From: an uncultured delta proteobacterium
GTDB lineage: Bacteria; Desulfobacterota; Binatia; JACPRU01
Direction of reading: 5' to 3'
Length of the DNA: 64,000 nucleotides
Assembly: GCA_963745025.1 (NCBI GenBank)
Contig: CAVUWD010000002.1
Coordinates: forward strand, 1 to 64,000
This document shows, piece by piece, positions 5,866 through 47,850 of the stretch; the first letter of the stretch is position 1, and every line of letters begins with the position of its first letter. Below the pieces are notes generated by a model, which did no database searches, was not told the DNA's origin, and worked only from the letters and a program-made list of their open reading frames with translations. Both the position numbers and the translations under genes were made by a program.

Positions 5866-5876
5866 CGTAGTGCGGC

Positions 5877-6186: not shown

Positions 6187-6214
6187 CTCTCGCTCCGCTT
6201 ACAGCGTAACACCG

Positions 6215-7045: not shown

Positions 7046-7051
7046 TCGCGG

Positions 7052-12315: not shown

Positions 12316-12436
12316 CTGGATCTCTGTTGCGGACGTGCTCTGATATCGCGCGTGCCGTGTCAACCGCAACGCTGGAGAGGGCTCGGGCTTCGTGGAAGAG
12401 TGGGCGCGCCGGAGAACCGGAGGAGAGGAGGAAACC

Positions 12437-25091: not shown

Positions 25092-25550
25092 TCAGATCTC
25101 ATGCCGGTTCATCGCGTTCGCGATCAGCCGATCGAGCGAGATCGGACCGGGGCCGGCGAGCGCCAGCCAAGCGAAGATCACCACGTACGCCCATTCCGTG
25201 AGCCCGAAAAAGCCCGCGAGCGAGTCGACGTTTCCCCACTGCGCGGTCTTGATCGCGACGAACATGACGACGATCAGCGGAACCGACGCGATGCGCGTGG
25301 CGAGCCCAACGAGCACGAGCAGGCCGCAGACGAACTCGTTGGCCGAGGCGAACGGCGCCTGGTACTGCGGGTAGGGGATGCCGAGCTCGGTGAAATAGTC
25401 GATGATCTTCTGCAGATTGTGGAGCTTCCCCCAGCCGGTCGAGACGAAGATCCAGCCGATCGTGAGGCGCGCGATGAGCGGCGCGAGCCAGGCGAGCCGT
25501 CGAGCGACGGCGCTCGGAAGATCGTAAATCAGTGTGGCAATCAGATTCAT
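25092..25550 (-). CDS. DoxX family membrane protein
   Basis: RLTIGWIFVSTGWGK, EFVCGLLVLVGLATR, GPGPISLD. Confidence 0.92.
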   Translation of the reverse strand: MNLIATLIYDLPSAVARRLAWLAPLIARLTIGWIFVSTGWGKLHNLQKIIDYFTELGIPYPQYQAPFASANEFVCGLLVLVGLATRIASVPLIVVMFVAIKTAQWGNVDSLAGFFGLTEWAYVVIFAWLALAGPGPISLDRLIANAMNRHEI

Positions 25551-25945
25551 GCTTCTTCTCCTCGGCCCTTGGCCCTTCTTCTGAACCTCGCCACGGCCCT
25601 TCGAGTTCCCGCCGCGACGACTGCGGCGAGCTCGAAGGTCTCGCGAAGTCTACCTCTTGGATGAAGGCGCGCGGGGTGAGGTTTCGCGTTAGGGCGAGCC
25701 GAAGCTACGTAGGCGTTTTTCCACAAGAGGCTTGGTTGCGATCGCAGCCTCCCTCCACCCGGTGAGCGCTGGTGGCAGAGCCCCAGAGGAATCCTTCGGG
25801 GAATTGCCACCGATTCACTCATTCCCTTCGAAGGATCGTAGCGCCCGCCCCGTTCCAGAGCTTGCCAACCGCCACGAGGAGTGCATTGATATGAAGTAAT
25901 ATCGGTCTTTGCGGGCGTGAGTACGGGAGAGAGAGCCCGGAAGCC

Positions 25946-25959
25946 GAGGAGGTAGAACG
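25946..25959 (+). promoter_or_regulatory. Strong Shine-Dalgarno site for xmoC
   Basis: GAGGAGGT followed by AGAACG and then ATG at 25960. Confidence 0.8.
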
Positions 25960-26742
25960 ATGGCCATGGCCGCAAAAGTCCTGACGATCGACGGTCGACG
26001 TGCCCCGAGCGCAGGAGGGATCAATTACCGGCTCCTGGCCGGCGGGATGCTGACGCTCAGCGCGATCTTCGTGAGCGTTCGACTCTACCAGCAGTTCTTC
26101 GCCTGGACGACCGGACTGGATTCGAGCACGCCGGAATTCCAGACGCACTGGATGCGGCTTCTCTACGGCGAGTTCTTCGTCGAAGGTGTGGCCGCGGCCG
26201 CGATCTGGGGCTGGCTCTGGAAGACGCGGGATCGCAATCTCGCGGCGCTCGAACCCTCGGAAGAGATCAAGCGCTATCTGCGTCTGATCGGTTGGCTGCT
26301 GATGTACGTCTTCGCGGTCTACTGGGCCGAGTTCTTCGCCGAGCAAGACGCGACCTGGCACCAAACGGTGGTCCGCGACACCGAGTTCACGCCGAGCCAC
26401 ATTGCGCTCTTCTTCGGCGCCATGCCGGTGTTCATCATCATGGGTGTGAGCTCGTATCTCTACGCGCGGACGCGCATTCCACAGTTCGCGCGCGGGCATT
26501 CGGTCCCCTTCGTGATCGCCGTCGCCGGCCCCTTCATGATGCTGCCCAACGTCGGCTTCAACGAGTGGGGTCACACGTTCTGGATCATGGAGGAGATCTT
26601 CTCGGCGCCGCTGCATGCGGGATTCGTCGTGTTCGCCTGGGCCGCGCTCTGTCTCGGAGGCATCCTGATGCAGGGCATCCCCCGCATCATCGAGCTGGCG
26701 CAGGGAGAGGCGCAGCGGGCGGTACGCCCCGCGACCGGCTGA
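25960..26742 (+). CDS. pmoC: Copper membrane monooxygenase subunit C (PmoC/AmoC family)
   Basis: WGWLWKTRDRNL, EQDATWHQTVVRDTEFTPSH (CuC Asp/His/His), GPFMMLPNVGFNEWGHTFWIMEEIFSAPLH (CuD Asn/His/His). Confidence 0.97.
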   Translation: MAMAAKVLTIDGRRAPSAGGINYRLLAGGMLTLSAIFVSVRLYQQFFAWTTGLDSSTPEFQTHWMRLLYGEFFVEGVAAAAIWGWLWKTRDRNLAALEPSEEIKRYLRLIGWLLMYVFAVYWAEFFAEQDATWHQTVVRDTEFTPSHIALFFGAMPVFIIMGVSSYLYARTRIPQFARGHSVPFVIAVAGPFMMLPNVGFNEWGHTFWIMEEIFSAPLHAGFVVFAWAALCLGGILMQGIPRIIELAQGEAQRAVRPATG

Positions 26743-26766
26743 CCGTCGGCGGCGGCGAGGCGCGGA

Positions 26767-27537
26767 ATGGTGCAGCGGAAGGCAGCGTCGGCCGAACCGG
26801 CGTACGACGACGTATCTCCGGCATCGAGCGATCCGCAGCAGCTCTATCGGACGATCGATTGGCTGCTGATCCCGCTGCTCTTCATGGTGGTGCAGGCGGC
26901 CTTCCACATCCACGCGATGCTCACGGTGGGTGACTGGGACTTCTGGACCGACTGGAAGGATCGGCGCTGGTGGCTCGTGGTGACGCCGATCTCGCTCATC
27001 ACCTTTCCCGCGGCGATCCAGTACGTTCTCTGGGAAAAGTTCCGGCTGCCGATCGGCGCCACGGTCTGCGTGACGGCGCTGCTGCTCGGACAGTGGATGA
27101 GCCGAACGATCAACTTCTACGGCTGGGCCTACTTCCCGCTGAACTTCACCTGGCCGGCGACGCTCATCCCGGGGGCGATTCTGCTCGACTGCGTGTTGAT
27201 CCTCACGCGGAGCTATCTGTTGACCGGCATCTTCGGCGGCATGCTCTGGGGGGTGATCTTCTACTTCGGCAACTGGCCGATGCTCGCGCCCTTCCATCTG
27301 CCGATGAACCACAACGGCGTGCTGTTGTCGCTCGCCGACCTCCAGGGTTTCGAGTACATCCGGACGGGAACGCCCGAATACATCCGCATCATCGAGCGGG
27401 GTACGCTGCGCACGTTCGGCAAGGACGTTACCCCGGTCTCGGCGTTCTTCTCGGGGTTCGTGTGCGTGCTCATGTACTTCGTGTGGAATCTCATGGGTCG
27501 ACTGCTGTCGACCGTGCGCTTCATCCAGAAGATCTGA
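26767..27537 (+). CDS. pmoA: Copper membrane monooxygenase subunit A (PmoA/AmoA family)
   Basis: HIHAMLTVGDWDFWTDWKDR, FRLPIGAT, FYFGNWP, YIRTGTPEYIRIIERGTLRTFGKDV. Confidence 0.98.
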   Translation: MVQRKAASAEPAYDDVSPASSDPQQLYRTIDWLLIPLLFMVVQAAFHIHAMLTVGDWDFWTDWKDRRWWLVVTPISLITFPAAIQYVLWEKFRLPIGATVCVTALLLGQWMSRTINFYGWAYFPLNFTWPATLIPGAILLDCVLILTRSYLLTGIFGGMLWGVIFYFGNWPMLAPFHLPMNHNGVLLSLADLQGFEYIRTGTPEYIRIIERGTLRTFGKDVTPVSAFFSGFVCVLMYFVWNLMGRLLSTVRFIQKI

Positions 27538-27548
27538 GCACCGCGCGC

Positions 27549-28793
27549 ATGGCTTCACGCTCACGCTCACGCGGGCGGCTCGTAGCTCTGATCGCGCTCG
27601 GCTGGAGTGCGGTGGCGTCCCTCGCGTGGGCGCATGGGGAGCGCACCCAGGAGCCGTTCCTGCGCATGCGCAGCATCCTCTTCTACGACTGCCAGTGGTC
27701 GACGGATCGCCTGAAGGTGAACGACGAGCTCGTCCTGTCGGGCCGATTTCGGGTGTTCGACGACTGGCCGATCGAAGTGATGGGCCGGCCGGAGACCGTG
27801 TACATCAACACGGGAGTGCCGGGCCCGGTCTTCGTGCGTAAAGAGTCGTTCCTGAACGGCGTGAACATGGCGAACTCCACGTCGCTGACGATCGGCGGCG
27901 ACTACGAGTTCCAGGTGAAGCTTCGCGCCCGTGCTCCCGGCACCTACCACGTTCATCCGCTGATCAACGTCTACAACGCCGGCCCGATCCAGGGACCGGG
28001 AAAATGGGTGACCATCGAGCCGGGCGGCGGGCCCTTCACGAACCCGGAGAAGACGCTGATGGGCCAAGAGGTCGATCTCGAGCGATTCGGGTTCTCCACC
28101 GTGGTCGGGTGGCATCTCGTATGGGTCGCGGTCGCTCTGGTCTGGCTCGCCTGGTGGGTCCGGCGGCCGCTGTTCATTCCGCGATACATCCTCGTCACGC
28201 GCGGCGCCGAGGACGAGCTCGTGTCCGCCACCGATCGCAAGCTCGCAGCAGGGCTCTTCGTCGCCACGCTGGCGATCGTGGTGATCGGCAACTACTGGGC
28301 GACCACGAAGTACCCGATCACCGTTCCACTGCAGTCGAGCCGCATTCGCGTCAAGCCGCTGCCGCGGCCCGCGCAGGGGGTGGAGGTGGACCTCGTCAAG
28401 GCGACCTACGAGGTGCCCGGGCGCACGGTCTATCTCGACCTGAAGGTCACGAATCAGTTGGCGAAGCCGGTGCGCCTCTCCGAGCTCACCACGGCGAACG
28501 TGCGCTTTCTGAACGCCGCCGTCGCCAAGGACGAGCCGGGCTATCCGCGCGATCTGATCGCGCCGAGCGGGCTCGCGGTCGAGCCCGAAGCCGCGATTGG
28601 CCCGGGCGAGACGAAGCTCGTTCACGTCTCCGCGACGGACCCCATCTGGGAGACGGAGCGCTTGGCGCTCCTCCTCTACGATCCCGACAGCCGCTTCGGC
28701 GGGCTGCTCATGTTCCAGGACTCCGAGGGCACGCGCTATCTATCGACGGTCGGTGGGCCGATCCTTCCGACCTTCAATCTGAAGGCGCTGTAG
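27549..28793 (+). CDS. pmoB: Copper membrane monooxygenase subunit B (PmoB/AmoB family)
   Basis: Signal peptide then HGERTQEPFLRMR, PGTYHVHP (CuB His brace), GPGKWV, two TM helices, YEVPGR, WETERL, YDPDSRFGGLL. Confidence 0.97.
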   Translation: MASRSRSRGRLVALIALGWSAVASLAWAHGERTQEPFLRMRSILFYDCQWSTDRLKVNDELVLSGRFRVFDDWPIEVMGRPETVYINTGVPGPVFVRKESFLNGVNMANSTSLTIGGDYEFQVKLRARAPGTYHVHPLINVYNAGPIQGPGKWVTIEPGGGPFTNPEKTLMGQEVDLERFGFSTVVGWHLVWVAVALVWLAWWVRRPLFIPRYILVTRGAEDELVSATDRKLAAGLFVATLAIVVIGNYWATTKYPITVPLQSSRIRVKPLPRPAQGVEVDLVKATYEVPGRTVYLDLKVTNQLAKPVRLSELTTANVRFLNAAVAKDEPGYPRDLIAPSGLAVEPEAAIGPGETKLVHVSATDPIWETERLALLLYDPDSRFGGLLMFQDSEGTRYLSTVGGPILPTFNLKAL

Positions 28794-28843
28794 TGCGTAG
28801 GCCTTTCTTTGCAAGAAGCCAGCAAAGACGTCGCAGAATGATG

Positions 28844-29013
28844 AGCGCGCGTGTCCTATTCGATCCGTATTCGGATCGAATAGGACACGCGCAACCGCGA
28901 CTATGAAGCGCGGGACGGTTCGAGCCGCTCCTTGGGTATTGCCTTCCGCGCTCCGCGCGGTGGGTGCCGTTTCCGGTCGAGCCGAGTACGGCTCGACCGG
29001 AAACGGCACCGCT
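28844..29013. repeat. Composite inverted repeat element 2 in the xmoB-xmoD spacer
   Basis: Perfect 20-bp stem 28847-28866/28873-28892 (loop GTATTC); leader TATTGCCTTCCGCGCTCCGCGCGGT; perfect 21-bp stem 28963-28983/28990-29010 (loop GAGTAC). Confidence 0.95.
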
Positions 29014-29032
29014 GTCATAACGACGTACGTTC

Positions 29033-29644
29033 GTGGCAGAGACTGAAGGCATTACGCTAGTGCGCACGATCATCCACCGTCCACGCGCGAGGGCCGTGAT
29101 TGCGCTCGTCGCGCTTCTCACCGGAGCGGCGTCGACCGCCGCGCGCGCGCACGGCGGCGCGACGATCGACAAGGATCCGTGCGTACAAAAGACCGGCAAC
29201 TGGTCCGTGCACTTCACCGTCTACGAGCCCGAGTTCGATCCCTCCGGCGAATACTGTGCCGACGTTCCGAAGGCCGGACCGATGATCGTCGTCTTCGACT
29301 TGGTCGATCAGGAATTGCGGAAGGTCCCCTTCGACCTCGAGATCGTCAAGGTGAACGGATCGTCCCGGGAGACCCTCCACCACGTCCCCGCCAAACCTTA
29401 CCCGACCGGCGTGATCAACGCCCAGCTGACGATCGCCTCGCCCGGCCGCTACGCGGCGATCGTCACCCCCGAAGGTAAGGATCCGATCCTCTTCCCCATG
29501 CGGGTCGAGATTGCGATGCCGCTCTGGGTGTGGGTCATCCCGCTGCTGCTCGTCGCGCCTCTCCTCTACTACTGGAGCCAGCGCCGCACGCCCCCGCCCG
29601 CCGCGGCTTCCGAAGCGCGGCGAAACCTCGCGCTGGTCAAGTGA
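29033..29644 (+). CDS. pmoD: PmoD/AmoD-family periplasmic copper protein with C-terminal TM anchor (start may be GTG at 29060)
   Basis: Signal peptide then HGG..DPC..VHFTVYEP, EYCADVPKAGPMIVVFDLVDQELR, YPTGVI, C-terminal TM; position directly after xmoB. Confidence 0.85.
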   Translation: MAETEGITLVRTIIHRPRARAVIALVALLTGAASTAARAHGGATIDKDPCVQKTGNWSVHFTVYEPEFDPSGEYCADVPKAGPMIVVFDLVDQELRKVPFDLEIVKVNGSSRETLHHVPAKPYPTGVINAQLTIASPGRYAAIVTPEGKDPILFPMRVEIAMPLWVWVIPLLLVAPLLYYWSQRRTPPPAAASEARRNLALVK

Positions 29645-31356
29645 CGAAGAGGATCATCCTGTTCGTCGCCCTCGTTCTCGTCGCCGCGCTCGCGGCCGCG
29701 CCTCGCCGCTGGGTTCCTCGCCTGCTCGAGCCCGCGCGCGCCGTGCTCGTCGGCGACGCCGCGTACCGGAGCCCGCCCGCGACCCTGCCGATCGACCTCG
29801 GAACGAGCGAGCCTCCCTGCGCGAACGAGCACCCGGAGTGGCGCGACGCGCAGGTGATCGAGGGTGTGGCGATCGAGCGCTCGACGGTATGCGAGCCCGA
29901 CAATCCGTACCTCGTCGCGGCCGTCGTCAAAGGCACCAACAACGTCTCGATGGAGACGTTGATGAAATCCGGTCTCGCTCCCGACGCGGTGGTCAAGACG
30001 AACGATCGCGACGGCGACGGCGACCCCGACGACGTCCACATCAAGCTCGAGGTGGTGGAGCTGAACGGCCACTCGCCCGACACCCCGGAGCTCATTCCGC
30101 GCTTTCCGATCGCGCCTGGCATCGAGCCCGGATTCTGGGTCTTTGCGCCGAAGAGCTTCGGAATGGCGACGAGGAGCCTCGAGGACCTGCGCGCGAATCC
30201 ACTCTTTCGCGTTCCGTCCCCCTCGATCCGCGTCGAGCAGGGAGACCACGTCTCCGTCACGCTCGAGAACACGCATTACCTGCCGCACACGATCCATTTT
30301 CACGGCGTCGATCATCCCTATCATTTCTTCCTCGACACCCCCGACGTGAAGGACGCGCGGGTCGGCAACGACGGCGTACCGGAGACCGACGAGCACACGG
30401 TCATGCCCGGCGACAGCCACACCTACGAGTTCACGCCGCGCCATGCGGGCACGAAATTCTACCACTGCCACGTCCAGCCGCAGGCGCACCTGTTGATGGG
30501 GCTCCAGGGGATGTTCGTGGTCGAGGAGAACCGGCCCGACAACTGGCTCGAGACGCTGAACGTCGGCGCCGGCCAGGTCCGCCATCCCTCGGTCGCGGTC
30601 CGCGAGCAGTACGCGAGCGAATACGACCTCCACTACATGGATCTGGACAAGAGCTTGCACGAGCTCGTGCAGAAGGTGAACGACCCGCGCCTGATCGCCC
30701 GGGCGATCAACCGCACCTACAACATCACGAAGCGGGTGGCGACGTACTTCCTGCTGAACGGGCGGTCGTTCCCGTACACGTTCCGCGAGTCGCTGGTGGT
30801 GGTGAAGCCGGACGAGAAGGTGAAGCTTCGGGTGCTGAACGGCGGGATGTCGTTGATCTCGCTTCATCCGCACGGCCAGGCGGTGACGGAGACCGACCTC
30901 GACGGGATCGAGGTTCCCCCCGCGGCGCGGGTCACACGCGACGTCGTGGCGATCGCCGCCGCGCAGCGCGTCGATCTTCTCCTCGACACCACGAACGACG
31001 GCCTCCACAGCTACGGCGACGGCGTGTGGCTGCTCCACGATCACAACGAGCACGCGTTCACGACCGACGGCGTGAGTCCCGGAGGAAGCATCAGCGCGAT
31101 CGCCTACGAGTCGTATCTCGACGCGACCGGCTGGCCGATCACGCACGGCATCGACTGGAAGCCCTTCTTCTCGCCCGACTACTATCGCCGAAAGATTCCG
31201 GTGTGGGTCACCTACGACGACCTGGGGATGCTCGGCGAGGCCGGACCCACGTCGCCGGCACCGAGGCAAGTGGCCGCGCGTGCGCTGCTCGCGGGTCTCG
31301 TAGCCGGCGCGCTCGGATCGGGGTTCGGCCGGCGGCGTCCGAGGCGGCTGCTTTGA
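29641..31356 (+). CDS. Membrane-anchored two-domain multicopper oxidase
   Basis: HTIHFHG, YHCHVQPQAHLLMG (type-1 Cu in domain 1), LHPHG, WLLHDH in domain 2; DRDGDGDPDD loop; hydrophobic segments at both termini; GTGA overlap with pmoD. Confidence 0.9.
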   Translation: MTKRIILFVALVLVAALAAAPRRWVPRLLEPARAVLVGDAAYRSPPATLPIDLGTSEPPCANEHPEWRDAQVIEGVAIERSTVCEPDNPYLVAAVVKGTNNVSMETLMKSGLAPDAVVKTNDRDGDGDPDDVHIKLEVVELNGHSPDTPELIPRFPIAPGIEPGFWVFAPKSFGMATRSLEDLRANPLFRVPSPSIRVEQGDHVSVTLENTHYLPHTIHFHGVDHPYHFFLDTPDVKDARVGNDGVPETDEHTVMPGDSHTYEFTPRHAGTKFYHCHVQPQAHLLMGLQGMFVVEENRPDNWLETLNVGAGQVRHPSVAVREQYASEYDLHYMDLDKSLHELVQKVNDPRLIARAINRTYNITKRVATYFLLNGRSFPYTFRESLVVVKPDEKVKLRVLNGGMSLISLHPHGQAVTETDLDGIEVPPAARVTRDVVAIAAAQRVDLLLDTTNDGLHSYGDGVWLLHDHNEHAFTTDGVSPGGSISAIAYESYLDATGWPITHGIDWKPFFSPDYYRRKIPVWVTYDDLGMLGEAGPTSPAPRQVAARALLAGLVAGALGSGFGRRRPRRLL

Positions 31357-32016
31357 CCGCCGCGGTCGTCGCGGCGCTCGCGGCCGTGCTCGCCGTCGGT
31401 GCGGGCTGCCGCCGAGCCCGCCGCGGATCGCTCGCACGAGGGCCATGCGATGGGCGGCATGCAGATGTCGGCGCAGGGCATGGTGATGAACCAGAACACC
31501 GACCGCCTGCCGCAAGACTGCGCGAGCATCTCGCAGGACGTCGCGATCACGGTTCATGCGGGAAGGAAGTACGCCGCGAAGTATCCGGGAACGATGTACG
31601 CCTACGATCGGGGTGCGTGGGACGTGCCGCCGTGCTCGCGGGTCACCGTCACCTTGGTGAACGAAGACCGCGTGCGCCATCAGTGGATGCTTCACGGCCT
31701 GCCGCGCTACCTCTACCCCGAAGGGATGTTCCATCTCGAGGTGAGCGGCCCCGGGGAGGGAAGCGGCACCTTCATCGTGCCGAGCGCGAAGAAGACCTAC
31801 CTCGTCCATTGCGACGTGCCGCAGCACGCCGAGAAGGGCATGAAGGCCGAGCTCACGGTGGACGGCGGCGACGGCGACCTGCCGAGCATTCCGGGCGTGT
31901 CGGCTGCGATCGAGCCCGACGCCTATCGCGTTCGCTGGGACGCGGCCACGCTGATCGTGGCGGGGGCGATGGGGTTTCTCGGCGCGGTATTCGGGTTCCG
32001 CGCGCTGCGACGGTAG
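31353..32016 (+). CDS. Membrane-anchored cupredoxin (type-1 copper protein); probable +1 indel near 31403 splits off the signal peptide
   Basis: TTG at 31353 overlapping the MCO stop gives MTAAVVAALAAVLAVGA; next frame gives His/Met-rich SHEGHAMGGMQM, RHQWMLH, HCDVPQHAEKGM, C-terminal TM. Confidence 0.85.
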
Positions 32017-32052
32017 GGCGTCAGTCTCGATAGAATGCTCGGCGATACGAAA

Positions 32053-32477
32053 AGCGCGCTTGGTGTTCGTCGATCCGTACTCGGATCGACGAAGAACCAA
32101 GCGCAACAGCGCTAAACGCAATCTCGGTAGCTCAATCGATCGGAGACGGGATCGCGACCAGCGGGAGCGATCCGACACGGACGCTGATCTCGGTAGCTCA
32201 GCCCAAAAACCTCAATTACCTACCCCGGTCTGCATGAAATCCAACTGTGGCGCAGTTCGATTCTTCAGCGATAACTCTTTGAACCTGCGGGGGTTTCCCG
32301 CACCATTTTCTATGGAATTGAGGGTTTTGGGCTCAGTCGATCGGAGATGAGTCGCGACCGGCAGGAGCGACTGTGAAAGACGTAGACCGATTCGGTGGGT
32401 TATCGTTTTCCGCGCTGCGCGCGGTTGCGGTCGGTTGTGACCGACTCGAGTACGGGCCGATCACAACCGACCGCGCT
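32053..32477. repeat. Composite inverted repeat element 3 containing two motif C copies and a nested MITE
   Basis: Hairpin 32056-32104 (loop GTACTC), motif C at 32123-32172 and a split copy at 32189-32370, leader plus hairpin 32408-32474 (loop GAGTAC). Confidence 0.9.
32201..32332. mobile_element. MITE (about 130 bp, non-autonomous)
   Basis: Terminal IRs GCCCAAAAACCTCAATT / AATTGAGGGTTTTGGGC (1 mismatch), flanked by TCA direct repeats (CTCAG if ends are placed one base inward); AT-richer interior; removal restores an intact motif C copy. Confidence 0.85.
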
Positions 32478-32514
32478 CTCGATCTTCCCGAAGGATTCGG
32501 AGGTGAGGTGATCG

Positions 32515-33423
32515 GTGACGCACGCTCCTGACGTCGTGCCGTCCCGGTCGCAGCGCGCACGGAAGGTCCTCGCGACCGCTGCCGTACTGGCGGCCGTCGG
32601 CGCCGCCCTCGTCGTGCCGCTCTGGCGGGCGAGCCCGCGGCTCCACGGCGCGGCGGAGGCCGAGATCGCGCCCCACGCCTACGCGGCGAGCGAGCCGATC
32701 GCCTGCGCGGGCGCTTCTCGAGCCGGGCCCGCGGGCGCCTCCCGACACGAGGCGACTCCCCGCGGGCTTCGCTACATGGTGAAGACTCCCGCCAACTATG
32801 ACCCGACGCGGGCGCATCCGCTGCTCGTCGTTTACGCGTCCCACGGAGCGAATCGGTTTCTATCCGAGCGTTACGTGGGTCTCACGCGCGCGGCCACGGC
32901 CGAGGGATTCATCGTCGTTTACGCGGACAGCCGTACGCTCGATCGGGCGACGATCGAAGATCTCGGCGGCATTCCCGAGAGCGTGGCGGCGCGGTGGTGC
33001 GTCGATCGCGGCCGAATCTATTTCACCGGGCACTCCGACGGCGGTACGGCGGCGACCGCGATCACGGTCCTCGGCACGTCGCCGGCCGCTCCGGCAGCGA
33101 TCGCGCCGAGCGCCGCCGGATTCCGCCGCGAGGACCTGACGGCGCTCGCCTGCCCACCGCCGGTCTCCGTCATGGTGCTGCACAGCCGTGACGACGAGCT
33201 CTTTCCCTCGTTCGGCCGCGCGGCGGCCGAATGGTGGGCCGCCTGCAACGGTTGCGGGGCGAAGCCGGTGCCGCGCGCCGACGGCTGCCTCGTCTTCCCG
33301 GACTGTCAGCCACAGGGCGCAACGCTCTACTGCGAGGGCGAGGGTAGACACGTGGATTGGCCGGACCGCAACCGGGCGCTGCTCGAGTTCTTTGGGTCGG
33401 CGAGAATCGTCGGTCGGCAATGA
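32515..33423 (+). CDS. Periplasmic alpha/beta esterase (PHB depolymerase/LpqC-like)
   Basis: N-terminal TM, PANYDPTRAHPLLVVY, RIYFTGHSDGG, VLHSRDD, WAACNGC, GRHVDWP. Confidence 0.82.
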   Translation: MTHAPDVVPSRSQRARKVLATAAVLAAVGAALVVPLWRASPRLHGAAEAEIAPHAYAASEPIACAGASRAGPAGASRHEATPRGLRYMVKTPANYDPTRAHPLLVVYASHGANRFLSERYVGLTRAATAEGFIVVYADSRTLDRATIEDLGGIPESVAARWCVDRGRIYFTGHSDGGTAATAITVLGTSPAAPAAIAPSAAGFRREDLTALACPPPVSVMVLHSRDDELFPSFGRAAAEWWAACNGCGAKPVPRADGCLVFPDCQPQGATLYCEGEGRHVDWPDRNRALLEFFGSARIVGRQ

Positions 33424-33693
33424 GCTGACGCATCTGCGGAGCAAACTTGCAGACGGGGGTGTCTTCGAGTAGTTGCGTCATGAAGAGGAGTTGCGCGGCG
33501 GGGTGGATGGCGCTCCCGCCGCATATCGCCGATAGTCACCGTGCGATGGAGTGAAACTTGCTTGAGTTCTGGCTCGAGCGCTGACTGAATTCAAGCGTCC
33601 GGCGCTGCGGCCCGATTTTTCCGACGTCTTCTCCGGGAGAGCTAGTTAGTAGCGGCCTTCGAGCGGTGGCTGGTCGGGCAGGGGAGGAGGCAA

Positions 33694-34278
33694 ATGTACA
33701 ATTCTTGGGCAACCGGCAGGATAACCTCCCCGACGGATGGGCGGACGCTCATCCGTTCTTCGAATGAGATCAGTGAAAGCGCGGTCGCCTGGTATATCGT
33801 GCAGACCAAGCCGCACAAGGAGGGATCGGTCGAGAGCTTTCTCAGGGGCAAGGCGCGAGATGTATTTCTGCCGCGGATCGTCGAGCGAGTGAGAGCGGGT
33901 CGGACGATGCAACGTCGCGTCTCGCCGATGTTCCCGTCTTATCTATTCGCGCGTCTATCGCTCGATTCTCTCGGCAAGACCGTACGTTACACGCAAGGTG
34001 TGCGGGATTTCGTGCGCTTCGGCGGTCGTGCCCAGCCGGTCGCACCCGAAATCATCGACGCTCTCCGCATGCGAACTGAACCGCTAGGGTTCTACGAGCC
34101 TCCGCCGATCCGCTTCCGGGCGGGGGAGCGGCTCGAGATCAACGAGGGGCCGCTCCGCGGTCTAGCGGTGGTCTTCGAGCGCGAGATGAAAGGGCCCGAG
34201 CGGGTCGCCGTGCTGCTGGCCGAAATGTGTCTCGCCGCACGCGTGATTCTGGGATCCGAAGCTCTCTCGAGGGCGTAA
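33694..34278 (+). CDS. NusG paralog transcription antiterminator (RfaH/UpxY-like)
   Basis: WYIVQTKPHKE, PMFPSYLF, VRYTQGVRDFVRFG, KOW motif GERLEINEGPLRG; GGAGGAGG RBS; first gene of polysaccharide cluster. Confidence 0.9.
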   Translation: MYNSWATGRITSPTDGRTLIRSSNEISESAVAWYIVQTKPHKEGSVESFLRGKARDVFLPRIVERVRAGRTMQRRVSPMFPSYLFARLSLDSLGKTVRYTQGVRDFVRFGGRAQPVAPEIIDALRMRTEPLGFYEPPPIRFRAGERLEINEGPLRGLAVVFEREMKGPERVAVLLAEMCLAARVILGSEALSRA

Positions 34279-34334
34279 CGATTCGATCGGCAGTCGTTCG
34301 ACGTGCCGACCTGGCTCTCTCGTAGCGATCGACG

Positions 34335-35319
34335 GTGCACTATCTGATCACAGGCGGGGCGGGGTTCATCGGCTCGCACCTCGCCGAGCGTCTGATCTCG
34401 CTCGGTGACAGTGTCACCATCATCGACGACCTCTCGACCGGGTCGATCGATAACATCACGCATCTTCGAGCCTCACCCGAAATTTCACTACGTGATCGAC
34501 GTCGATCGAGGAAAAGAGCCTACTCGGCCGAGCTCGTGGACGAGGCGGACGTCGTCTACCACCTCGCCGCCGCGGTCGGCGTTCGGCTGATCGTCGAGAG
34601 CCCGGTCGCGCACCATCGAGACGAACGTCCACGGCACGGAGGTCGTGCTCGAGCTGCGCCGACGAAGAAGAAGAAGCGCGTGCTGATCGCCTCGCACGTC
34701 CGAGGTGTACGGCAAGCGCGAAGCGAGTGCCCTTCCGCGAGGACGACGACCTCGTCCTCGGCCGCACCGACGAAGGGCCGCTGGAGCTACGCGTGCTCGA
34801 AGGCGATCGACGAGTTCCTCGCGCTCGCGTACTGGCACGAGAAGAAGCTGCCGATCGGTGGTCGTGCGCCTCTTCAACACCGTCGGCCCGCGCCAGACCG
34901 GCCGCTACGGCATGGTGATCCCGAACTTCGTCCCGCAGGCGCTCGCCGGCCGCGACCGATCACCGTCTACGGCGACGGCACGCAGATCGCGCTGCTTCAC
35001 GCCACGTCCCCGACGTGGTCGGCGCGTCATCGTCGCTCGTCATCGCCGCCGGAGCGCCCGTCGGCGAGGTCTTCAACGTCGGCAGCGACCACGAGATCAC
35101 GATCAATGCGCTCGCTGCGATGGTGCGGGAAATGACGGAGAGCACGTCCGAGATCGTCCACATTCCCTACGATCAGGCGTACGCCGACGGTTTCGAGGAC
35201 ATGCGCCGGCGGATCCCGACCTGACGAAGCTCCGGCGCTTCACCGGGCACGCGCCGAGCAACGGCATCCGCGAAATCCTCCGGGACGTGATCGAATCCAT
35301 GCGCGCGAGCGTGCCATGA
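34335..35319 (+). CDS. NDP-sugar epimerase/dehydratase (heavily frameshifted)
   Basis: LITGGAGFIGSH, YHLAAAVGVRLIVESP, RWSYACSKAIDEFLALAY, RLFNTVGPRQTGRYGMVIP, GFEDMRRR across frames. Confidence 0.88.
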
Positions 35320-37175
35320 GCCCCTGGCTTCCTTGGTTGGCGTCCTTCGCCGCCGGAGTGATTCTGGTACCGGCGGTTCGCGGGATCGCGCGCAAGCGAG
35401 ACTGGATCGCGCCGCCCAAGCCGGACCGCTGGCACCGTGCGCCGACGGCGTTGATGGGCGGCGTCGCGATCTGGATGGCCGTGCTCGCCGGCGTCGCGCC
35501 GGCGGCGATCCATGACATGGGCCGCTGGGAAGCCTGGATCGCGCTCCTCGCGGGAGGATCGTTCCTCTGCGCGATCGGCGCCATCGACGATCGGCTGAAC
35601 CTGAAGCCCGCGAGCAAGGTTGTCGCGCAGCTCGTCGCGGCCGCCGTCGCAGTCGGAGCGGGATACCAGATCCGCTTCTTCCATAGCCAGCTCCTGAACC
35701 TCGCCGTCTCGTTCTTCTGGATCGTGGCCATCACCAATGCCGTGAACCTGCTCGACAACATGGACGGTCTCGCGGCGGGCATCGTGATGATCGCCGGCCG
35801 GGTACATCGGCTGGATGCGCGCCGGGAGCAGCGATTCGGTGCTCGCCATGGCGCTCGCCGGCAGCCTCGGCGCGTTCCTGATCTTCAACTTCAACCCGGC
35901 GTCGATCTTCATGGGCGACTCGGGAGCATGTTCATCGGCTACACGCTGGCCGGCCTCTCGCTCGCTCGCGACGATGCCTCCAACATCGTCTCCTTCGTCG
36001 CCGTGCCGGCGGCGACGCTTCTCGTGCCGATCCTCGACACCAGCCTCGTCACCGTCACGCGCCTCGTGCGCGGCCGCTCGATCGCCGAGGGCGGGCGGGA
36101 CCATGCCTCGCACCGTCTCGTCATGCTGGGCCTCAGCGAGCGCGAGGCCGTCGGCGTACTCTGGTTCCTGGCGCTCGTCGCCGGCGCCGCCGCGAATTTC
36201 ACCAAGGCCTACTCGTACCAGCTCGGCCTCGGCCTCCTGCCGGTGATCATCATCGGCTTCGGCCTCCTCGGCATCTATCTCTCCCGGCTGAGCTTCGTCG
36301 AGGAAGGAAATGCCGGGCTCGACAAGCAGGGATACGTCCGCCTGGCGCTCGACATCTCGTACAAGCGCCGCGTGCTCGAAGTGCTGCTCGACTTCGTGCT
36401 GATCGTCGTTTGCTACTATCTCGCCTACGGCCTGCGGTTCGAGTTCCAGATGCCTCGCGGGATGTTCGCGCTCTTCGAGAAATCGCTGCCCATAGTGGTG
36501 GCGATGACGATGCTCGCGTTCTTCTACCAGGGCGTGTACCGGGGTTCTGGACGTACGTGAGCACGGAGGATCTGACCAAGTACGTCAAAGCCTGCGCTCT
36601 CGCGGTCTTGCTCACAGTGCTCTCGATCGTGCTGATCCACCGATTCGACGGGTATCCGCGGTCGGTTTTCGCCATCTACGGGCTTCCTGATGTTCGTCGG
36701 CGTGGGCGGCACGCGCGTTTCGTTCCGCTTGATGGACGAGGCGCTGCAGCGCCGGCGTCCCGGCCATCCGGTGCTGATCGTCGGCGCGGGCAGCGGCGGC
36801 GAGATGGCGGCTCGCGAGCTGCTGCGCAACCCCGAGCTCGGACGCAAGGTCGCGGGCTTCGTCGACGACGACCGGCTGAAGCAGGGGCGGAGGATTCACG
36901 GGTACGCGGTGCTCGGGGGCACAGCCGATCTCGAGCGGGTGCGCGAGCTCGTGCCGTTCGAGGAGGTGGTGCTGACGACTCACAAGCTCTCGCCGGCCGC
37001 GCTCGAGCGGCTCAAGGAGTTCAGCCAGCGACGCCGGGTTCCGCTTCGCCGCTTCCGCGTCGAGCTCCTCCACGATTTCGCGCCGCTTGCTCCGCGAGTC
37101 GAGCCCGAGCGTGCGGCCGAGCGGCCGGTTGAGCCGCTCGGGGTGGCGCTCGCCCGTTTGCCGAGGGCGCGATAA
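35316..37175 (+). CDS. WecA/MraY-family polyprenyl-phosphate sugar-1-phosphate transferase fused to a CapD-like TM + Rossmann domain (frameshifted)
   Basis: ITNAVNLLDNMDGLA, FNFNPASIFMGDSGS, GGRDHASHRL, then YGLRFEF, GVYRG, VLIVGAGSGG, GFVDDD. Confidence 0.85.
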
Positions 37176-37176
37176 C

Positions 37177-38256
37177 TTGCGGAACGGCACGGGCGTGGTC
37201 GTGGCTTCTCTCCTCCTATCGGGGATCGTTCCCGAGCTCGGATGCGGGACGGCCGTGTCGCGACCGCCCGCCGCGGACGATGCGGCACACCAAGCAGAGC
37301 TGGCGCGTTTGGTAGAGGAGCGCTCTCGACCGACCGACCGCGTGAACTACGTGATCGGCCCGGGCGACAAGATCGACGTGCGCGTGCAGAACCTCCAAGA
37401 GCTCACGGGAACGTGGGAGGTCTCCGAAGAGGGCACGGTGGTCTTTCCGCTGCTGGGATCGGTGAAGCTCGCGGGATCGACCGAGCGAGAAGCCGCCGAA
37501 CGCATACGCGGCCAGCTCGTCGACTTCATGGTGGCGCCCGAGATCGCGCTGTCGGTCAAGGAGTTCCACGGCCAGCAGGTCTCGGTCATCGGCGCGGTCG
37601 GGAAGCCCGGCGTCTATGCGCTTCATGGCTTCGACGAGACGATCGCCGACGTCATCACCGAGGCCGGCGGCGTCAGCCAGAACGCCGAAACGCGCATCTA
37701 CTTCACGCCCGCAACCGGGGCTCCCGAAGCCTTGGGTAGCGAGGCGGCGGCACGCCTGGCGATCAGCGGTCCGCCCGGGAGCTTCGGGCCGAAGACCAAG
37801 GCGGTGTCGATCGACTTCGCGCCGGTCTACCGTGGGCACGAGGTGCCGGAGCTCCGCATCCCGGTTCGCGGCGGAGACGTCATCCTCGTTCCGCAGAGCG
37901 GAGAAGTCTACGTCGACGGCTGGGTGAACGCGCCCGGGGCCTTTCCCGTCACACGCGCGCACACGCTCAGCGAGGCGATCGTCAACGCGGGCGATCTTCA
38001 CTTCGCGGCCTCGACCGGGCCGCTCACGCTCCAGCGCGCGGGCGCCGACGGCGAAGTGAAAACGTACCAGGTCGACTATGAGCGCATCTTGAGCGGGCAA
38101 GATCCGGACTTGCCGCTGGACACCGGCGACAAGATCAAGGTGGCGTCGAACCCGGTGAAGGTCGTTCCGTGGTCGGTGTTCGCCTTGATCAAGGGGCTCG
38201 TGACTTTCTCAGTCGGCGGATCTCAGACCAAGACGGTCGGGCCCGGGGCCGAGTGA
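37177..38256 (+). CDS. wza: Polysaccharide export protein (Wza/OPX family, SLBB domains), copy 1
   Basis: YVIGPGDKIDV, GTVVFPLLGSVKLAG, VSVIGAVGKPG, VYVDGWVNAPG; start uncertain. Confidence 0.85.
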   Translation: MRNGTGVVVASLLLSGIVPELGCGTAVSRPPAADDAAHQAELARLVEERSRPTDRVNYVIGPGDKIDVRVQNLQELTGTWEVSEEGTVVFPLLGSVKLAGSTEREAAERIRGQLVDFMVAPEIALSVKEFHGQQVSVIGAVGKPGVYALHGFDETIADVITEAGGVSQNAETRIYFTPATGAPEALGSEAAARLAISGPPGSFGPKTKAVSIDFAPVYRGHEVPELRIPVRGGDVILVPQSGEVYVDGWVNAPGAFPVTRAHTLSEAIVNAGDLHFAASTGPLTLQRAGADGEVKTYQVDYERILSGQDPDLPLDTGDKIKVASNPVKVVPWSVFALIKGLVTFSVGGSQTKTVGPGAE

Positions 38257-39293
38257 GGATCCACGAATATCTGGTGGCACTAGTCGGCCTCGTCTTGGCT
38301 GGCTGTGCCGCAGCGCAGCGGCCTCCGGTGGTGCGCGCCACGCCAGCCGAAACCGCGCGCGTCCAGCAGCTTCTCGCCGAGCGCACGACGAGCGCGCCCT
38401 CGAGCCGGACCATCGCCCCCGGCGACCGGCTCAACGTCAAGGTCGCGAACCTCGACGAGCTGAGCGGGGAGTTCTTGGTCGCCAAGGATGGGACGATATC
38501 GCTGCCGCTCGTCGGCGACCTCGCGGTCTCGGGGAAGCGCGACGTGGACGTCGCCGAGATGCTGCGCGACCGGCTCGCTGCGCAGTACCTGCAAGCACCG
38601 CAAGTTCTCGTGTCGCTCGTTGGCTATCAAGGCCAGCGAGTGGCGGTGATCGGGGCGGTGCGCACCCCCGGATTCTACGAGATCGATAAGCAGGGCGAGA
38701 CGATTCTCGATCTCATCACCAAGGCGGGAGGAATCGCCGGAGCTGCCGGTCCGAAGGTATATTTCTCCCCCGCGGAAGGAGCAAATTCCGCTTTCGAGCC
38801 CGCCGTGCTTTCGTCGGGGGACTCGGATCTAGGCACGGCTCTCAAGGGAAGAAACCCCCTCGAGATCGATCTCACCGACCTCTACCAGGGACGCGCGGTC
38901 GCCGCGCTCGGCATCCCGGTGCGCGACGGCGACCTCATCGCCGTGCAGCAGGGCGGCGAGATCTTCGTAGGGGGGTGGGTCGAGAAGCCGAATCTGTATT
39001 CGCTGCAACCGGCAATGACCGTGACGCAGGTGATCACCAAGGCCGGTGGCCTTCACGTGGCGGCTTCGTCTGACTCCGTGACGATCAGCCGCGGGGATGC
39101 CGACGGCCATCTGCGCGACTACCGCGTCGACTACCCGGCGATGGTTGCCGGTAGCGAGCAGGATGTCTTGCTCGAGCCGGGCGACAAGGTCTACGTCGGA
39201 GTGAGCCCGGTGAAGGTCGTGCCGTGGAGCGTTTACGCAGTCCTGGCCACCGTCATTCGCGTGGGCGTCGGGGCTAGTGTAGCGTTGTTCTGA
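38253..39293 (+). CDS. wza: Polysaccharide export lipoprotein (Wza/OPX family), copy 2
   Basis: Lipobox LAGC, IAPGDRLNV, DGTISLPLVG, YLQAPQV, VAVIGAVRTPG. Confidence 0.88.
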   Translation: MRIHEYLVALVGLVLAGCAAAQRPPVVRATPAETARVQQLLAERTTSAPSSRTIAPGDRLNVKVANLDELSGEFLVAKDGTISLPLVGDLAVSGKRDVDVAEMLRDRLAAQYLQAPQVLVSLVGYQGQRVAVIGAVRTPGFYEIDKQGETILDLITKAGGIAGAAGPKVYFSPAEGANSAFEPAVLSSGDSDLGTALKGRNPLEIDLTDLYQGRAVAALGIPVRDGDLIAVQQGGEIFVGGWVEKPNLYSLQPAMTVTQVITKAGGLHVAASSDSVTISRGDADGHLRDYRVDYPAMVAGSEQDVLLEPGDKVYVGVSPVKVVPWSVYAVLATVIRVGVGASVALF

Positions 39294-39298
39294 GGGGG

Positions 39299-41839: not shown

Positions 41840-41879
41840 GCCGGATCCGGAAGCCGACGCGGAGCGGATCGCGCTCTCC

Positions 41880-42830
41880 GTGATCGTGGTGAGCTGGAAC
41901 ACCAAGGCACTGCTGCGCAGGTGCCTGGTCTCGGTCGGCCGATTCCTCTCGAGCGTGCCGCATGAGGTGCTGGTCGTCGACAACGCCTCGCGCGACGGCT
42001 CGGCCGACATGGTCGCGGAGGAGTTTCCAGAGGCGCGACTCTTCCGCAACCCCGAGAACCTCGGCTTCGGCCGCGCCAACAATCAGGCGATGGCGGTGGC
42101 GCGGGGAGAGTTCTTCCTGCTGCTCAACAGCGATGCCGAGTTGCTCGACGACGGCGCCGCACGATTGCTCGAACGGGTGCGGGCACGCCCCGAGGTCGGC
42201 GTCGCCGGGCTCCGCATCCTGCGGCCGGACGGCCGGGTGCAGGCGAGCGCGCGCCGCTTTCCCACCTTGCGCCGCCTCTGCGTCGCCGGATTCTGGCTGA
42301 ACCGCGTTCTACCCCGTCCCGTCACCGAGGATCTCCTGCTCGGCCACTACTGGGACCACTGCGGGGAGCGCGAGGCGGACTGGGTGATCGGCGCTTGCAT
42401 GCTCGTGCGCGGCGAAGTCTTTCGCGAGACCGGCGGCTTCGATCCTTCGATATTCCTCTATGGCGAGGAGGTCGAATGGTGCTACCGCATCCGCGAGCGC
42501 GGCTGGAAAGTGCTGTTCTCCCCGGTCGGCAGCATCCTTCATCTCGACCACCAGAGCGCGAACCAGCTGCTCCAGGAAGCCGGCCGCGTCGACCTCTGCC
42601 TGATCGCGGAGGACGCGCTCATCGCGCGCTGGGAGGGTCCGTTGGCCGCCGCACTGGTGCCGCCGGCGCGCATCGGCGCGGCGCTGCTGCGCATCGGCGT
42701 CTTCGGGCTACGCGGCTTGCTCGGCCGTGACGATGCGTATGGGCGCGACGTGCGGAGCGAGGCGCGGGGGGTGCTGGGACACTACCGGCGCCGCTGGCTC
42801 GGTGGGGCCGGGGGAGCCGAGGCCTTGTGA
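41880..42830 (+). CDS. Glycosyltransferase family 2 (WbbL-like); true start probably slightly upstream
   Basis: VIVVSWN, VVDNASRDGS, NLGFGRANN, LLLNSD, FLYGEE. Confidence 0.92.
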   Translation: MIVVSWNTKALLRRCLVSVGRFLSSVPHEVLVVDNASRDGSADMVAEEFPEARLFRNPENLGFGRANNQAMAVARGEFFLLLNSDAELLDDGAARLLERVRARPEVGVAGLRILRPDGRVQASARRFPTLRRLCVAGFWLNRVLPRPVTEDLLLGHYWDHCGEREADWVIGACMLVRGEVFRETGGFDPSIFLYGEEVEWCYRIRERGWKVLFSPVGSILHLDHQSANQLLQEAGRVDLCLIAEDALIARWEGPLAAALVPPARIGAALLRIGVFGLRGLLGRDDAYGRDVRSEARGVLGHYRRRWLGGAGGAEAL

Positions 42831-42988
42831 GAACCTCCCCGGAGACAGCGCACGCTTCCATCTGTAGGTCGCTGCGGCGACCCGTGACCGCATCTACGGT
42901 CTCGCGTTCTCTCTCCGCGGCGAAGACGCGTTCAACGTCCTCCCGCGCGTGACACCGCGCGGCGACACTGTGCTCAGCTCGGGCTGCG

Positions 42989-47841: not shown

Positions 47842-47850
47842 GCATTCGTC

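Follow-up and report, generated by a model that had tools for sequence, protein, structure and literature searches.

A multicopper oxidase and cupredoxin pair encoded behind the copper membrane monooxygenase genes of a Binatia bacterium, and its possible role in copper handling

The stretch of DNA analyzed here, referred to as the window, comprises 64,000 nucleotides (positions 1 to 64,000 of the forward strand of contig CAVUWD010000002.1, assembly GCA_963745025.1), and its subject is a gene cluster of a Binatia bacterium that encodes a copper membrane monooxygenase (CuMMO) and, directly behind it, a PmoD-like protein, a multicopper oxidase, a cupredoxin, and an esterase. The list of open reading frames (ORFs) with their translations contains seven genes between 25960 and 33423, all on the plus strand, as a preliminary description of the window had claimed:

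25960..26742, plus strand: xmoC, CuMMO subunit C, 260 amino acids (aa); PF04896, E 7.8e-99 (330 bits); NF041641, 350.6 bits
26767..27537, plus strand: xmoA, CuMMO subunit A, 256 aa; PF02461, E 7.6e-111 (370 bits)
27549..28793, plus strand: xmoB, CuMMO subunit B, 414 aa, with signal peptide; PF04744, E 6e-148 (493 bits)
29033..29644, plus strand: PmoD/AmoD-family protein, 203 aa from the first GTG, with signal peptide, periplasmic Cx9Hx14C domain, and C-terminal membrane helix
29641..31356, plus strand: membrane-tethered multicopper oxidase, 571 aa from GTG 29641; PF07732/PF07731
31353..32016, plus strand: membrane-tethered type-1 (T1) cupredoxin with a His/Met-rich N-terminal arm, split by one extra base near 31406
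32515..33423, plus strand: membrane-anchored periplasmic alpha/beta-hydrolase, 302 aa, with a GHSDG motif, probably of the feruloyl-esterase/PHB-depolymerase kind

The genome of the host measures 5.65 Mb in 20 contigs and is 92.65% complete. Each of the seven genes was found in it once by tblastn, which detected neither a second CuMMO nor a second copy of the accessory cassette, by which we mean the pmoD-like, oxidase, and cupredoxin genes, in these 20 contigs. The four accessory proteins all possess hydrophobic segments at the N and/or C terminus, in line with the export or anchor segments attributed to them earlier. Among the ORFs of the cluster and its flanks that were scanned there is no member of the CopC or CopD families, in agreement with the earlier statement that copC and copD do not follow xmoD, and PCuAC is absent from the cluster in the same scan.

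By a wide margin, XmoC, XmoA, and XmoB pass the cut-offs of Pfam and NCBIfam, including those of the NCBIfam equivalog models, and they are encoded in the order C-A-B. Their best solved relatives are Methylococcus capsulatus Bath PmoC (E 2.1e-81), M. capsulatus Bath PmoA (E 2.7e-107), and 3rgb_A (E 4e-125), respectively, and the chains of M. capsulatus Bath particulate methane monooxygenase (pMMO) outscore those of bacterial ammonia monooxygenase (AMO) in the same lists of structures. The N-terminal HGE that follows the signal peptide of XmoB and its HVH motif, as well as the DxxxHx12H and NxxxHx13H motifs of XmoC, could be aligned with these structures. The ligands of the CuB (the N-terminal His and HVH), CuC (DxxxHx12H), and CuD (NxxxHx13H) sites are kept relative to M. 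capsulatus Bath pMMO, and family models and alignment both bear out the proposal that the three subunits are intact with all these ligands.

The nearest XmoA sequences, 93% and 87% identical to that of the window, come from two other Binatia loci, L001 and L002, which have the complete gene order and an upstream DoxX gene in common with the window; identity falls to ~60% for the next sequences. In a tree of 47 rows, hand-picked from 159 loci and 137 proteins and made without AMO or actinobacterial references, window XmoA falls in a starred clade of eight rows together with L001, L002, and environmental sequences, apart from Methylococcales, USC-gamma, Methylocapsa/Skermanella, Methylomirabilota, and the marine Cycloclasticus/alphaproteobacterial group; a second type of Binatia CuMMO is very distant from this clade. 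A cluster look-up of the closest XmoA proteins returned only the name "methane/ammonia monooxygenase subunit A," and the label TUSC, which we infer for the clade, is not tied to published TUSC accessions. The possibility that the cluster nests within canonical methanotroph pmo on a chimeric contig was rejected: GC content is even along the window (0.61-0.70), the contig is 278,735 bases long, the identical gene order including DoxX recurs in two other Binatia records, and XmoA lies outside canonical pmoA in the tree, in a well-supported clade of its own with two Binatia loci on long contigs.

The product of the pmoD-like gene matches no Pfam and no NCBIfam model, and a profile of 37 homologues matches the solved PmoD 6cpd with E 4.3e-25. 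C50, H60, and C75 are invariant in the 37 sequences and compose the Cx9Hx14C pattern, while hydrophobic segments occur at 21-37 and 158-182. The spacer of this pattern lacks Met, and the protein thus departs from the CuA-forming motif Cx7MxHxnC. For PmoD proteins of the Cx9HxnC type, the tested representative bound copper and formed no CuA site, and the family has been reported as specific to CuMMO organisms, some of its classes being often encoded close to multicopper oxidases (Fisher et al. 2018, PMC6189053). The stop codon of the pmoD-like gene overlaps the start codon of the oxidase gene (GTGA, 29641-29644).

The oxidase is composed of an N-terminal anchor, a conserved N-terminal domain of ~150 aa with two invariant Cys and a DxDxDGDPD loop, a two-domain, type-C-like core with an insert of ~65 aa between its two domains, and a C-terminal helix. 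Its best solved relatives are 2zwn (E 6.3e-28), which is the metagenome laccase mgLAC, and 3g5w (E 1.7e-27), the blue copper oxidase of Nitrosomonas europaea; an AlphaFold2 monomer model (pLDDT 85.7) gave Foldseek TM-target values of 0.79-0.80 to both. Oxidases of type C assemble as homotrimers in which the trinuclear sites lie between subunits. These two enzymes share with the window oxidase a T1 site in the first domain and the pattern HxxHxH...HCH...HxH...HxH at ~23-24% identity, whereas the latter adds the anchor, the ~150-aa N-terminal domain, the ~65-aa insert, and the C-terminal helix and, unlike them, has an obligate, separately encoded cupredoxin partner. H216, H219, H221, H275, C276, H277, H283, H409, H411, H466, and H468 are invariant in 83 sequences and M286 is kept in at least 90% of them. 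The T1 set is H216/C276/H283/M286 and the trinuclear-site His are H219, H221, H275, H277, H409, H411, H466, and H468, an arrangement of type C, with T1 in the first domain and the eight trinuclear His distributed over both domains. Because all twelve canonical ligands are conserved in the 83 sequences, the enzyme should reduce O2; a nitrite reductase was considered and rejected, as the eight trinuclear-site His are all invariant. The oxidase at L004 (3724-5346, a marine Alphaproteobacteria metagenome-assembled genome, MAG) has one in-frame stop codon and was omitted from the oxidase alignments.

Cuprous oxidases of the CueO/PcoA type combine three cupredoxin domains with a Met-rich insert that covers the T1 site and are exported by the twin-arginine route. 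The window oxidase differs from them in that its core has two domains, no RR motif precedes its anchor and there is no clear twin-arginine signal, and a Met/His-rich stretch is found on the partner cupredoxin instead; the CueO and CopA models of NCBIfam give 24 bits against a cut-off of 525 and 47 bits against a cut-off of 479, respectively.

The product of the next gene is, to judge from its sequence, a divergent T1 cupredoxin with a C-terminal anchor (hydrophobic segment 182-201). C41, C79, H94, M97, H99, C138, and H143 are invariant in 49 sequences and M148 is kept in at least 90%, so the T1 ligand pattern His...Cys-x4-His-x4-Met is provided by H94 or H99, C138, H143, and M148. Its profile matches to solved blue copper proteins are weak (6kol, E 0.0022), and the chain reached pLDDT values of 89-91 in the complex predictions described below. 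The His/Met-rich N-terminal stretch is also found in the distant members at L088 and L149. Although the TTG at 31353 overlaps the stop codon of the oxidase gene (TTGA), it opens a signal-peptide-like frame, whereas the cupredoxin domain reads in the oxidase frame, where its first start codon is GTG 31399; of the two stop/start overlaps described earlier, the one between the pmoD-like and oxidase genes therefore stands, but the other leads into a frame different from that of the cupredoxin domain. In L001 and L002 the signal peptide is in frame with the mature domain, and DNA alignment with these loci places one extra base in the window at ~31406-31407. Only two metagenome contigs listed bridge the site (X2 record 18 and X12 record 14), from two public metagenome runs that represent related populations and not the same strain, and both lack one base at 31406. 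The frameshift is probably an assembly error, or otherwise a recent strain-specific event.

Complex prediction placed the cupredoxin on the T1 face of the oxidase, with an ipSAE of 0.91 in each of three runs and 0.00 for the best of three controls; the mark used for this score is reached by 116 of 157 solved complexes and by two of 215 mismatched pairs. At least 93% of the contacts are common to the runs, and partner pLDDT is at least 89. The predicted interface comprises residues 90-99, 139-146 (the copper loop), and the Met-rich 23-30 of the cupredoxin and residues 104-180 (the N-terminal domain) and 209-213 (ENTHY, beside the T1 ligand His216) of the oxidase; the copper loop is predicted to face oxidase residues 209-213 and 255-259. 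By this model, the most likely arrangement is a two-subunit oxidase in which the cupredoxin is the second subunit.

To see how widely the pair occurs, a reverse search was made with the oxidase, which turned up at least 555 stretches that encode it; the top 80 loci were retained, and neighborhoods were counted over 87 loci with a long oxidase match. In all 76 loci that extend at least 900 nt past the oxidase gene, the latter is followed by a cupredoxin gene, always a separate one, and a PmoD-like gene lies upstream of the oxidase gene in 52 of 80. A CuMMO subunit is encoded at the same locus in 39 of the 87, or in 28 of the 48 with at least 6 kb on both sides. The order CAB-D-oxidase-cupredoxin, followed in some cases by the esterase, characterizes the clade of the window, and CAB-D-oxidase-cupredoxin is also found in marine Alphaproteobacteria and several Gammaproteobacteria MAGs; the second Binatia type has esterase-D-C-A-x-B-D-oxidase-cupredoxin, and Methylobacter-like lake MAGs have oxidase-cupredoxin-CAB, with the cassette upstream of pmoCAB. 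In M. capsulatus Texas (L140) the orthologous trio has the same order, with the oxidase and the cupredoxin each 58% identical to those of the window, but it is located away from pmoCAB, beside genes for an RND pump and an asparagine synthase, whereas the trio of the window is fused to xmoCAB and followed by the esterase. The fetched flanks of the Porticoccaceae locus L124 contain no CuMMO gene. Among five loci free of CuMMO genes whose neighbors were scanned, none has the trio beside a cytochrome oxidase operon. The pair of Nitrosomonas eutropha Nm57 (L208 in G756, ~5170-7650, minus strand) has an oxidase with 55% and a cupredoxin with up to 70% identity, and no PmoD-like gene was detected beside it. 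In a methane-oxidizing endosymbiont of Gigantopelta aegis (L131, 5130-12188) the pair comes directly after a run of heme d1 biosynthesis genes (a cytochrome d1 domain, four NirD/L-like genes, and a radical SAM gene), a possible link to the metabolism of nitrite or NO.

At the level of genomes, the oxidase is tightly restricted to those with a CuMMO. Among 301 genomes of the class Binatia, 49 have the oxidase and 68 have PmoB, and all 49 oxidase-positive genomes have PmoB, while the oxidase is found in none of the 233 PmoB-negative ones. Among 300 scored genomes of the class Gammaproteobacteria (one further genome of the sample was unscored), the oxidase was found in 12 and PmoB in 10, each of the latter having both. 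The two oxidase-only genomes are of 1.5 and 2.3 Mb, and a contig end cuts the oxidase in both: their matches cover part of the model, one of them starting from base 1 of its contig. Phylogenetic profiling, which had been proposed as a check, thus links the oxidase to CuMMO in 49 of 49 Binatia and 10 of 12 Gammaproteobacteria oxidase-positive genomes. In the order Methylococcales, where the search was for the oxidase, it occurs in 142 of 151 genomes. PmoB is also present in further oxidase-bearing genomes, namely an Alphaproteobacteria MAG, a Methylomirabilota-labelled MAG, a Porticoccaceae MAG, and M. capsulatus Texas. Four unpublished genomes are included in these tallies: G207 (Binatia, PmoB without oxidase), G347 (Methylococcales, with oxidase), and G493 and G595 (Gammaproteobacteria, with both). 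Without them, PmoB is found in 67 of 300 Binatia, the oxidase in 141 of 150 Methylococcales and 10 of 298 Gammaproteobacteria, and the oxidase accompanies PmoB in eight of eight Gammaproteobacteria. The system had been placed outside classical methanotrophs, which holds for the host but not for the accessory trio, since the latter is nearly universal in Methylococcales.

This distribution bears on the idea that the cassette is an ordinary copper resistance system, i.e., a CueO/PcoA-like cuprous oxidase with a helper, found with CuMMO only through the high copper import of these organisms. Such a system would be in keeping with the higher expression of the M. capsulatus orthologues when copper is supplied, with the RND efflux pump gene immediately upstream in M. 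capsulatus Texas, and with the absence of a CuMMO gene from the fetched flanks of about half of the loci (all but 39 of 87). General resistance genes are, however, less restricted than an oxidase found in 0 of 233 PmoB-negative Binatia and two of 290 PmoB-negative Gammaproteobacteria. Moreover, the cassette forms part of CuMMO operons of at least four lineages, where two gene orders occur, and it is consistently coupled to PmoD, reported to be CuMMO-specific (PMC6189053), so we consider plain copper resistance very improbable.

The predicted pair resembles the archaeal MCO4 (Nmar_1354, 9cck), which likewise belongs to CuMMO organisms and has the same plan, a two-domain oxidase with an extra T1 cupredoxin near the oxidase T1 site (PMC11761707). 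MCO4 has been described as unique to ammonia-oxidizing archaea (AOA), and its cupredoxin is fused and soluble, whereas that of the window is separate, membrane-anchored, and equipped with a His/Met arm, and the window oxidase ends in a hydrophobic helix (PMC11761707 for MCO4). One alternative, which we regard as unlikely, is that the pair is a bacterial two-gene counterpart of MCO4, a small-molecule oxidase that would clear a by-product of CuMMO, e.g., hydroxylamine from co-oxidized ammonia, with electrons flowing via the extra T1 cupredoxin to the oxidase and then to O2. Such a role would agree with the properties of Nmar_1354, whose pendant T1 cupredoxin has its T1 site 13.5 Å from that of the two-domain oxidase and which converts NH2OH into HNO with O2 (PMC11761707), with the occurrence of 9cck among the Foldseek matches of the oxidase model (rank 17, E 2.4e-19), with a predicted complex in which the copper loop of the cupredoxin faces the T1 region of the oxidase, with the origin of the closest solved relative 3g5w from an ammonia oxidizer, and with the position of the pair after heme d1 (nir) biosynthesis genes in the symbiont locus. 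The sequence similarity to Nmar_1354 is, however, weak (E 2.8e-9 over ~105 residues); four of five ammonia-oxidizing Betaproteobacteria (beta-AOB), in which the hydroxylamine flux is largest, are without the oxidase; and the His/Met-rich arm and the PmoD partner suggest metal binding. Furthermore, the cassette goes with canonical pMMO, the clade of the window, the second Binatia type, and marine hydrocarbon-type clades, and because it accompanies such different CuMMOs its role would be common to CuMMO rather than tied to one substrate.

Comparison with known CuMMO operons points to what occupies the place of the cassette elsewhere. In pmoCAB-pmoD-copC-copD-(PCuAC) of alpha-methanotrophs and amoCAB(E)D-copCD of beta-AOB, as in the window, CAB is followed by a PmoD-family gene and then by genes of periplasmic or membrane copper proteins (PMC6189053). 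The window differs in having the two-domain multicopper oxidase and the T1 cupredoxin where these operons have CopC/CopD/PCuAC, and its PmoD is of the Cx9HxnC type instead of the CuA-forming Cx7MxH type. Most genomes of these two groups are without the oxidase, which occurs in none of five alpha-methanotrophs and in one of five beta-AOB. In the Binatia family without the oxidase, a SCO1/SenC copper chaperone gene comes after the CuMMO operon in three of the four loci examined. Those three loci (L289, L291, and L292 in G078, G062, and G172) carry, together with SCO1/SenC, a set of alcohol-oxidizing enzymes consisting of a zinc alcohol dehydrogenase, a GMC oxidoreductase, a cytochrome c, and an aldehyde-oxidase-type molybdoenzyme.

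Another alternative is that PmoD, the cupredoxin, and the oxidase compose a periplasmic electron-transfer chain, which might feed the copper sites of CuMMO or drain electrons to O2 as a safety valve. All three are membrane-tethered copper proteins of cupredoxin fold encoded directly behind xmoB, and the predicted T1-to-T1 docking has a suitable geometry. A multicopper oxidase with a complete trinuclear site, however, passes electrons to O2 and not to a partner, which speaks against a chain that feeds CuMMO. For PmoD, a role as partner in electron transfer has been put forward (PMC8262859, PMC13058606), but the window PmoD belongs to the Cx9HxnC type, whose tested representative formed no CuA (PMC6189053). 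Since many CuMMO organisms are without the cassette, it could not be the general route for reductant, and we judge electron transfer to be an improbable function.

Known facts about the orthologues in M. capsulatus connect the cassette to copper. MCA2130 is listed as a Cx9HxnC PmoD, like that of the window, and the Texas orthologue of MCA2129 is listed, at the coordinates of L140, as a putative multicopper oxidase (PMC6189053, supplement). MCA2130, which lies beside a multicopper oxidase gene, is down-regulated without copper (PMC6688271), and the fold changes given for MCA2129 and MCA2130 are -2.35 and -3.94, respectively (PMC4831470, supplement); expression of the orthologues is thus copper-responsive. 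In Methylacidiphilum, too, pmoD adjoins a multicopper oxidase gene (PMC6688271).

With moderate confidence, we favor the view that the three genes encode an oxidase cassette which handles copper in the periplasm on behalf of CuMMO. The copper loop of the cupredoxin would dock on the T1 face of the oxidase, partly via the N-terminal domain of the latter, to give an oxidase of two subunits that reduces O2 on the periplasmic side of the membrane. Cu(I) might be captured by the His/Met arm and PmoD, and the oxidase would set the oxidation state of copper or pass it on, so that copper becomes available, in harmless form, for the assembly or repair of CuMMO. The cassette would thereby take the place held by CopCD/PCuAC or SCO1 behind other CuMMO operons. 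Copper handling is favored because the cassette accompanies CuMMOs of very different clades, because it includes a copper-binding PmoD and a His/Met arm, because the trio responds to copper in M. capsulatus, and because CopCD/PCuAC, or SCO1/SenC in three of four oxidase-free Binatia operons, hold the same position elsewhere. Whereas the genes, ligands, pairing, co-occurrence, predicted interface, and copper-responsive expression of the M. capsulatus orthologues are results, we infer what the oxidase acts on and whether copper passes to CuMMO. The earlier proposal of a dedicated oxidase-cupredoxin module is supported in that the pair is linked to CuMMO by co-occurrence, by adjacency in several lineages, and by predicted binding, with copper maturation and electron transfer as its candidate functions.

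Several points weigh against copper handling in the service of CuMMO. The oxidase is not needed by every CuMMO, for 19 of the 68 PmoB-positive Binatia, 15 of which belong to one family, are without it; five of five alpha-methanotroph genomes have only weak generic matches (E 1e-6 to 1e-10); and the pair occurs in one of five beta-AOB genomes, that of Nitrosomonas eutropha Nm57, whereas the other four were without a match at E 1e-5. Because many of the genomes are related to one another, fewer independent events underlie the co-occurrence than the counts suggest. What the complex score expresses is the model's own confidence, calibrated without the alignments of this analysis, and likeness to the solved archaeal oxidase with a fused cupredoxin, 9cck, may explain part of it. 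In CueO the Met-rich element is on the oxidase itself, whereas here it is on the partner, and no clear twin-arginine signal is seen. Copper-induced expression suits plain copper detoxification equally well, and the function of every member of the oxidase family is a prediction from sequence. A genuine frameshift would impair the cassette in this strain.

The cassette is a known, functionally uncharacterized neighborhood rather than the undescribed system suggested at the outset. CuMMOs of Binatota, of the TUSC type and the Actinobacteria/SAR324 bmoA type, have been published and resemble that of the window in having a Binatia host and CAB with pmoD (PMC8262859, bioRxiv 10.64898/2026.02.02.703227), and the window CuMMO is a further member of this kind. 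The neighborhood of PmoD and multicopper oxidase has also been noted (PMC6189053, PMC6688271). The word "multicopper" is absent from the main text of PMC8262859 and of bioRxiv 10.64898/2026.02.02.703227, and "cupredoxin" is absent from the text of the latter. In the literature covered, which excludes subscription journals, there are only passing mentions of the oxidase/PmoD neighborhood, and no study of its function, its cupredoxin partner, or its distribution was found.

The esterase at the end of the cluster scores 39 bits (E 5.8e-10) with NF050058 against a cut-off of 150, possesses the GHSDG motif, and has the feruloyl esterase 8jh8 as its best solved relative (E 2.8e-8). It is found at 21 of the 87 oxidase loci and in 34 of the 301 Binatia genomes, all 34 of which are PmoB-positive; besides Binatia, some Proteobacteria have it with the cassette. 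Both long spacers of the cluster contain perfect or near-perfect palindromes:

28847..29010, no strand: two perfect hairpins with stems of 21 and 22 bp and 4-nt loops (I3, 28847-28892, and I1, 28963-29010; 100% complementary) in the 239-bp xmoB-pmoD spacer
32427..32474, no strand: palindromic REP-like element I9, an inverted repeat in the 498-bp cupredoxin-esterase spacer

A query of positions 28955-29015, which span hairpin I1, has 18 blastn-short matches in the contigs of the genome, and a 61-nt query of 32420-32480, which span I9, has 52; these many genomic matches identify the spacer palindromes, hairpins I3 and I1 included, as members of dispersed, REP-like repeat families. No T-tract terminator was called at the xmoB-pmoD hairpins in the terminator scan, and they are possible sites of transcript processing or attenuation. 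A further palindrome lies at 32069-32090. The cupredoxin-esterase spacer is missing from L001, where the esterase gene starts 5 nt past the cupredoxin stop codon. A scan of 25400-33800 gave one promoter-like site against 0.8 expected and four terminator-like sites against 4.5 expected and was thus uninformative.

The genes on both sides of the cluster appear unrelated to it, with the possible exception of DoxX. Upstream, on the opposite strand, are genes for a cyclase and the following protein:

25092..25550, minus strand: DoxX-family membrane protein, divergent from xmoC; Pfam DoxX, E 4.5e-21

By tblastn its counterparts upstream of xmoC are 91% identical in L001 and 74% identical in L002, and the gene was undetected in the remaining loci of the 159 fetched. 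Right after the esterase gene, at 33694-53013 on the plus strand, a NusG paralogue leads a long co-oriented exopolysaccharide cluster with genes for glycosyltransferases, Wza-like exporters, a Wzz/tyrosine-kinase-like protein, and an ABC-2 transporter.

The substrate of the monooxygenase may be approached through the downstream oxidation enzymes of the genome (G000):

G000:C2:165573-167150, minus strand, and G000:C14:72802-74376, plus strand (L160 and L161; one on the contig of the window): quinohemoprotein pyrroloquinoline quinone (PQQ) alcohol dehydrogenases
G000:C14:90656-91759, minus strand: glutathione-dependent formaldehyde dehydrogenase, above the NCBIfam cut-off, ~16 kb from the second PQQ dehydrogenase
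12392-12919 of the window, plus strand: gene of the GFA family (glutathione-dependent formaldehyde-activating enzyme)

The two PQQ dehydrogenases belong to the methanol/ethanol family and are of the quinohemoprotein type because both carry a cytochrome c domain at the C terminus of the PQQ propeller. A third match, on C4, is a fragment with two TAG stop codons, and Fae was not found in this 92.65% complete genome. The search for xoxF, mxaF, or other alcohol dehydrogenases, which had been recommended, therefore yielded these two enzymes and none of plain MxaF/XoxF length. Quinohemoprotein alcohol dehydrogenases prefer ethanol and longer alcohols, and for this reason we lean, with low confidence, toward short alkanes over methane as the substrate of the window CuMMO. 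The presence of these dehydrogenases instead of a classical methanol dehydrogenase is relevant to the question of whether Binatia of this kind, from soil and sediment, consume methane at all.

How CuMMO is supplied with copper and electrons is a long-standing question, and most of the activity of pMMO and AMO disappears on purification. The cassette is a concrete candidate for a part in this supply, being restricted to CuMMO genomes, fused to the operon in several uncultured lineages, and present in the cultured methanotroph M. capsulatus (MCA2130, MCA2129, and the cupredoxin gene downstream), for which CRISPR/Cas9 gene-editing tools have been reported. Its restriction to CuMMO, the obligate pairing of oxidase and cupredoxin, and their predicted complex make it a good target for experiments. 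It is also possible, though we offer the idea tentatively and with more doubt than belief, that PmoD, the oxidase, and the docked cupredoxin form one membrane-bound copper machine needed by CuMMO metabolism in vivo. If so, this machine would be one "missing component" behind the low activity of isolated pMMO, and the same enzyme would be encoded by two genes in bacteria and in fused form (MCO4) in AOA. CuMMO organisms in general would then require a cupredoxin-fed oxidase, either for the redox state of the copper delivered or for a reactive by-product that they share.

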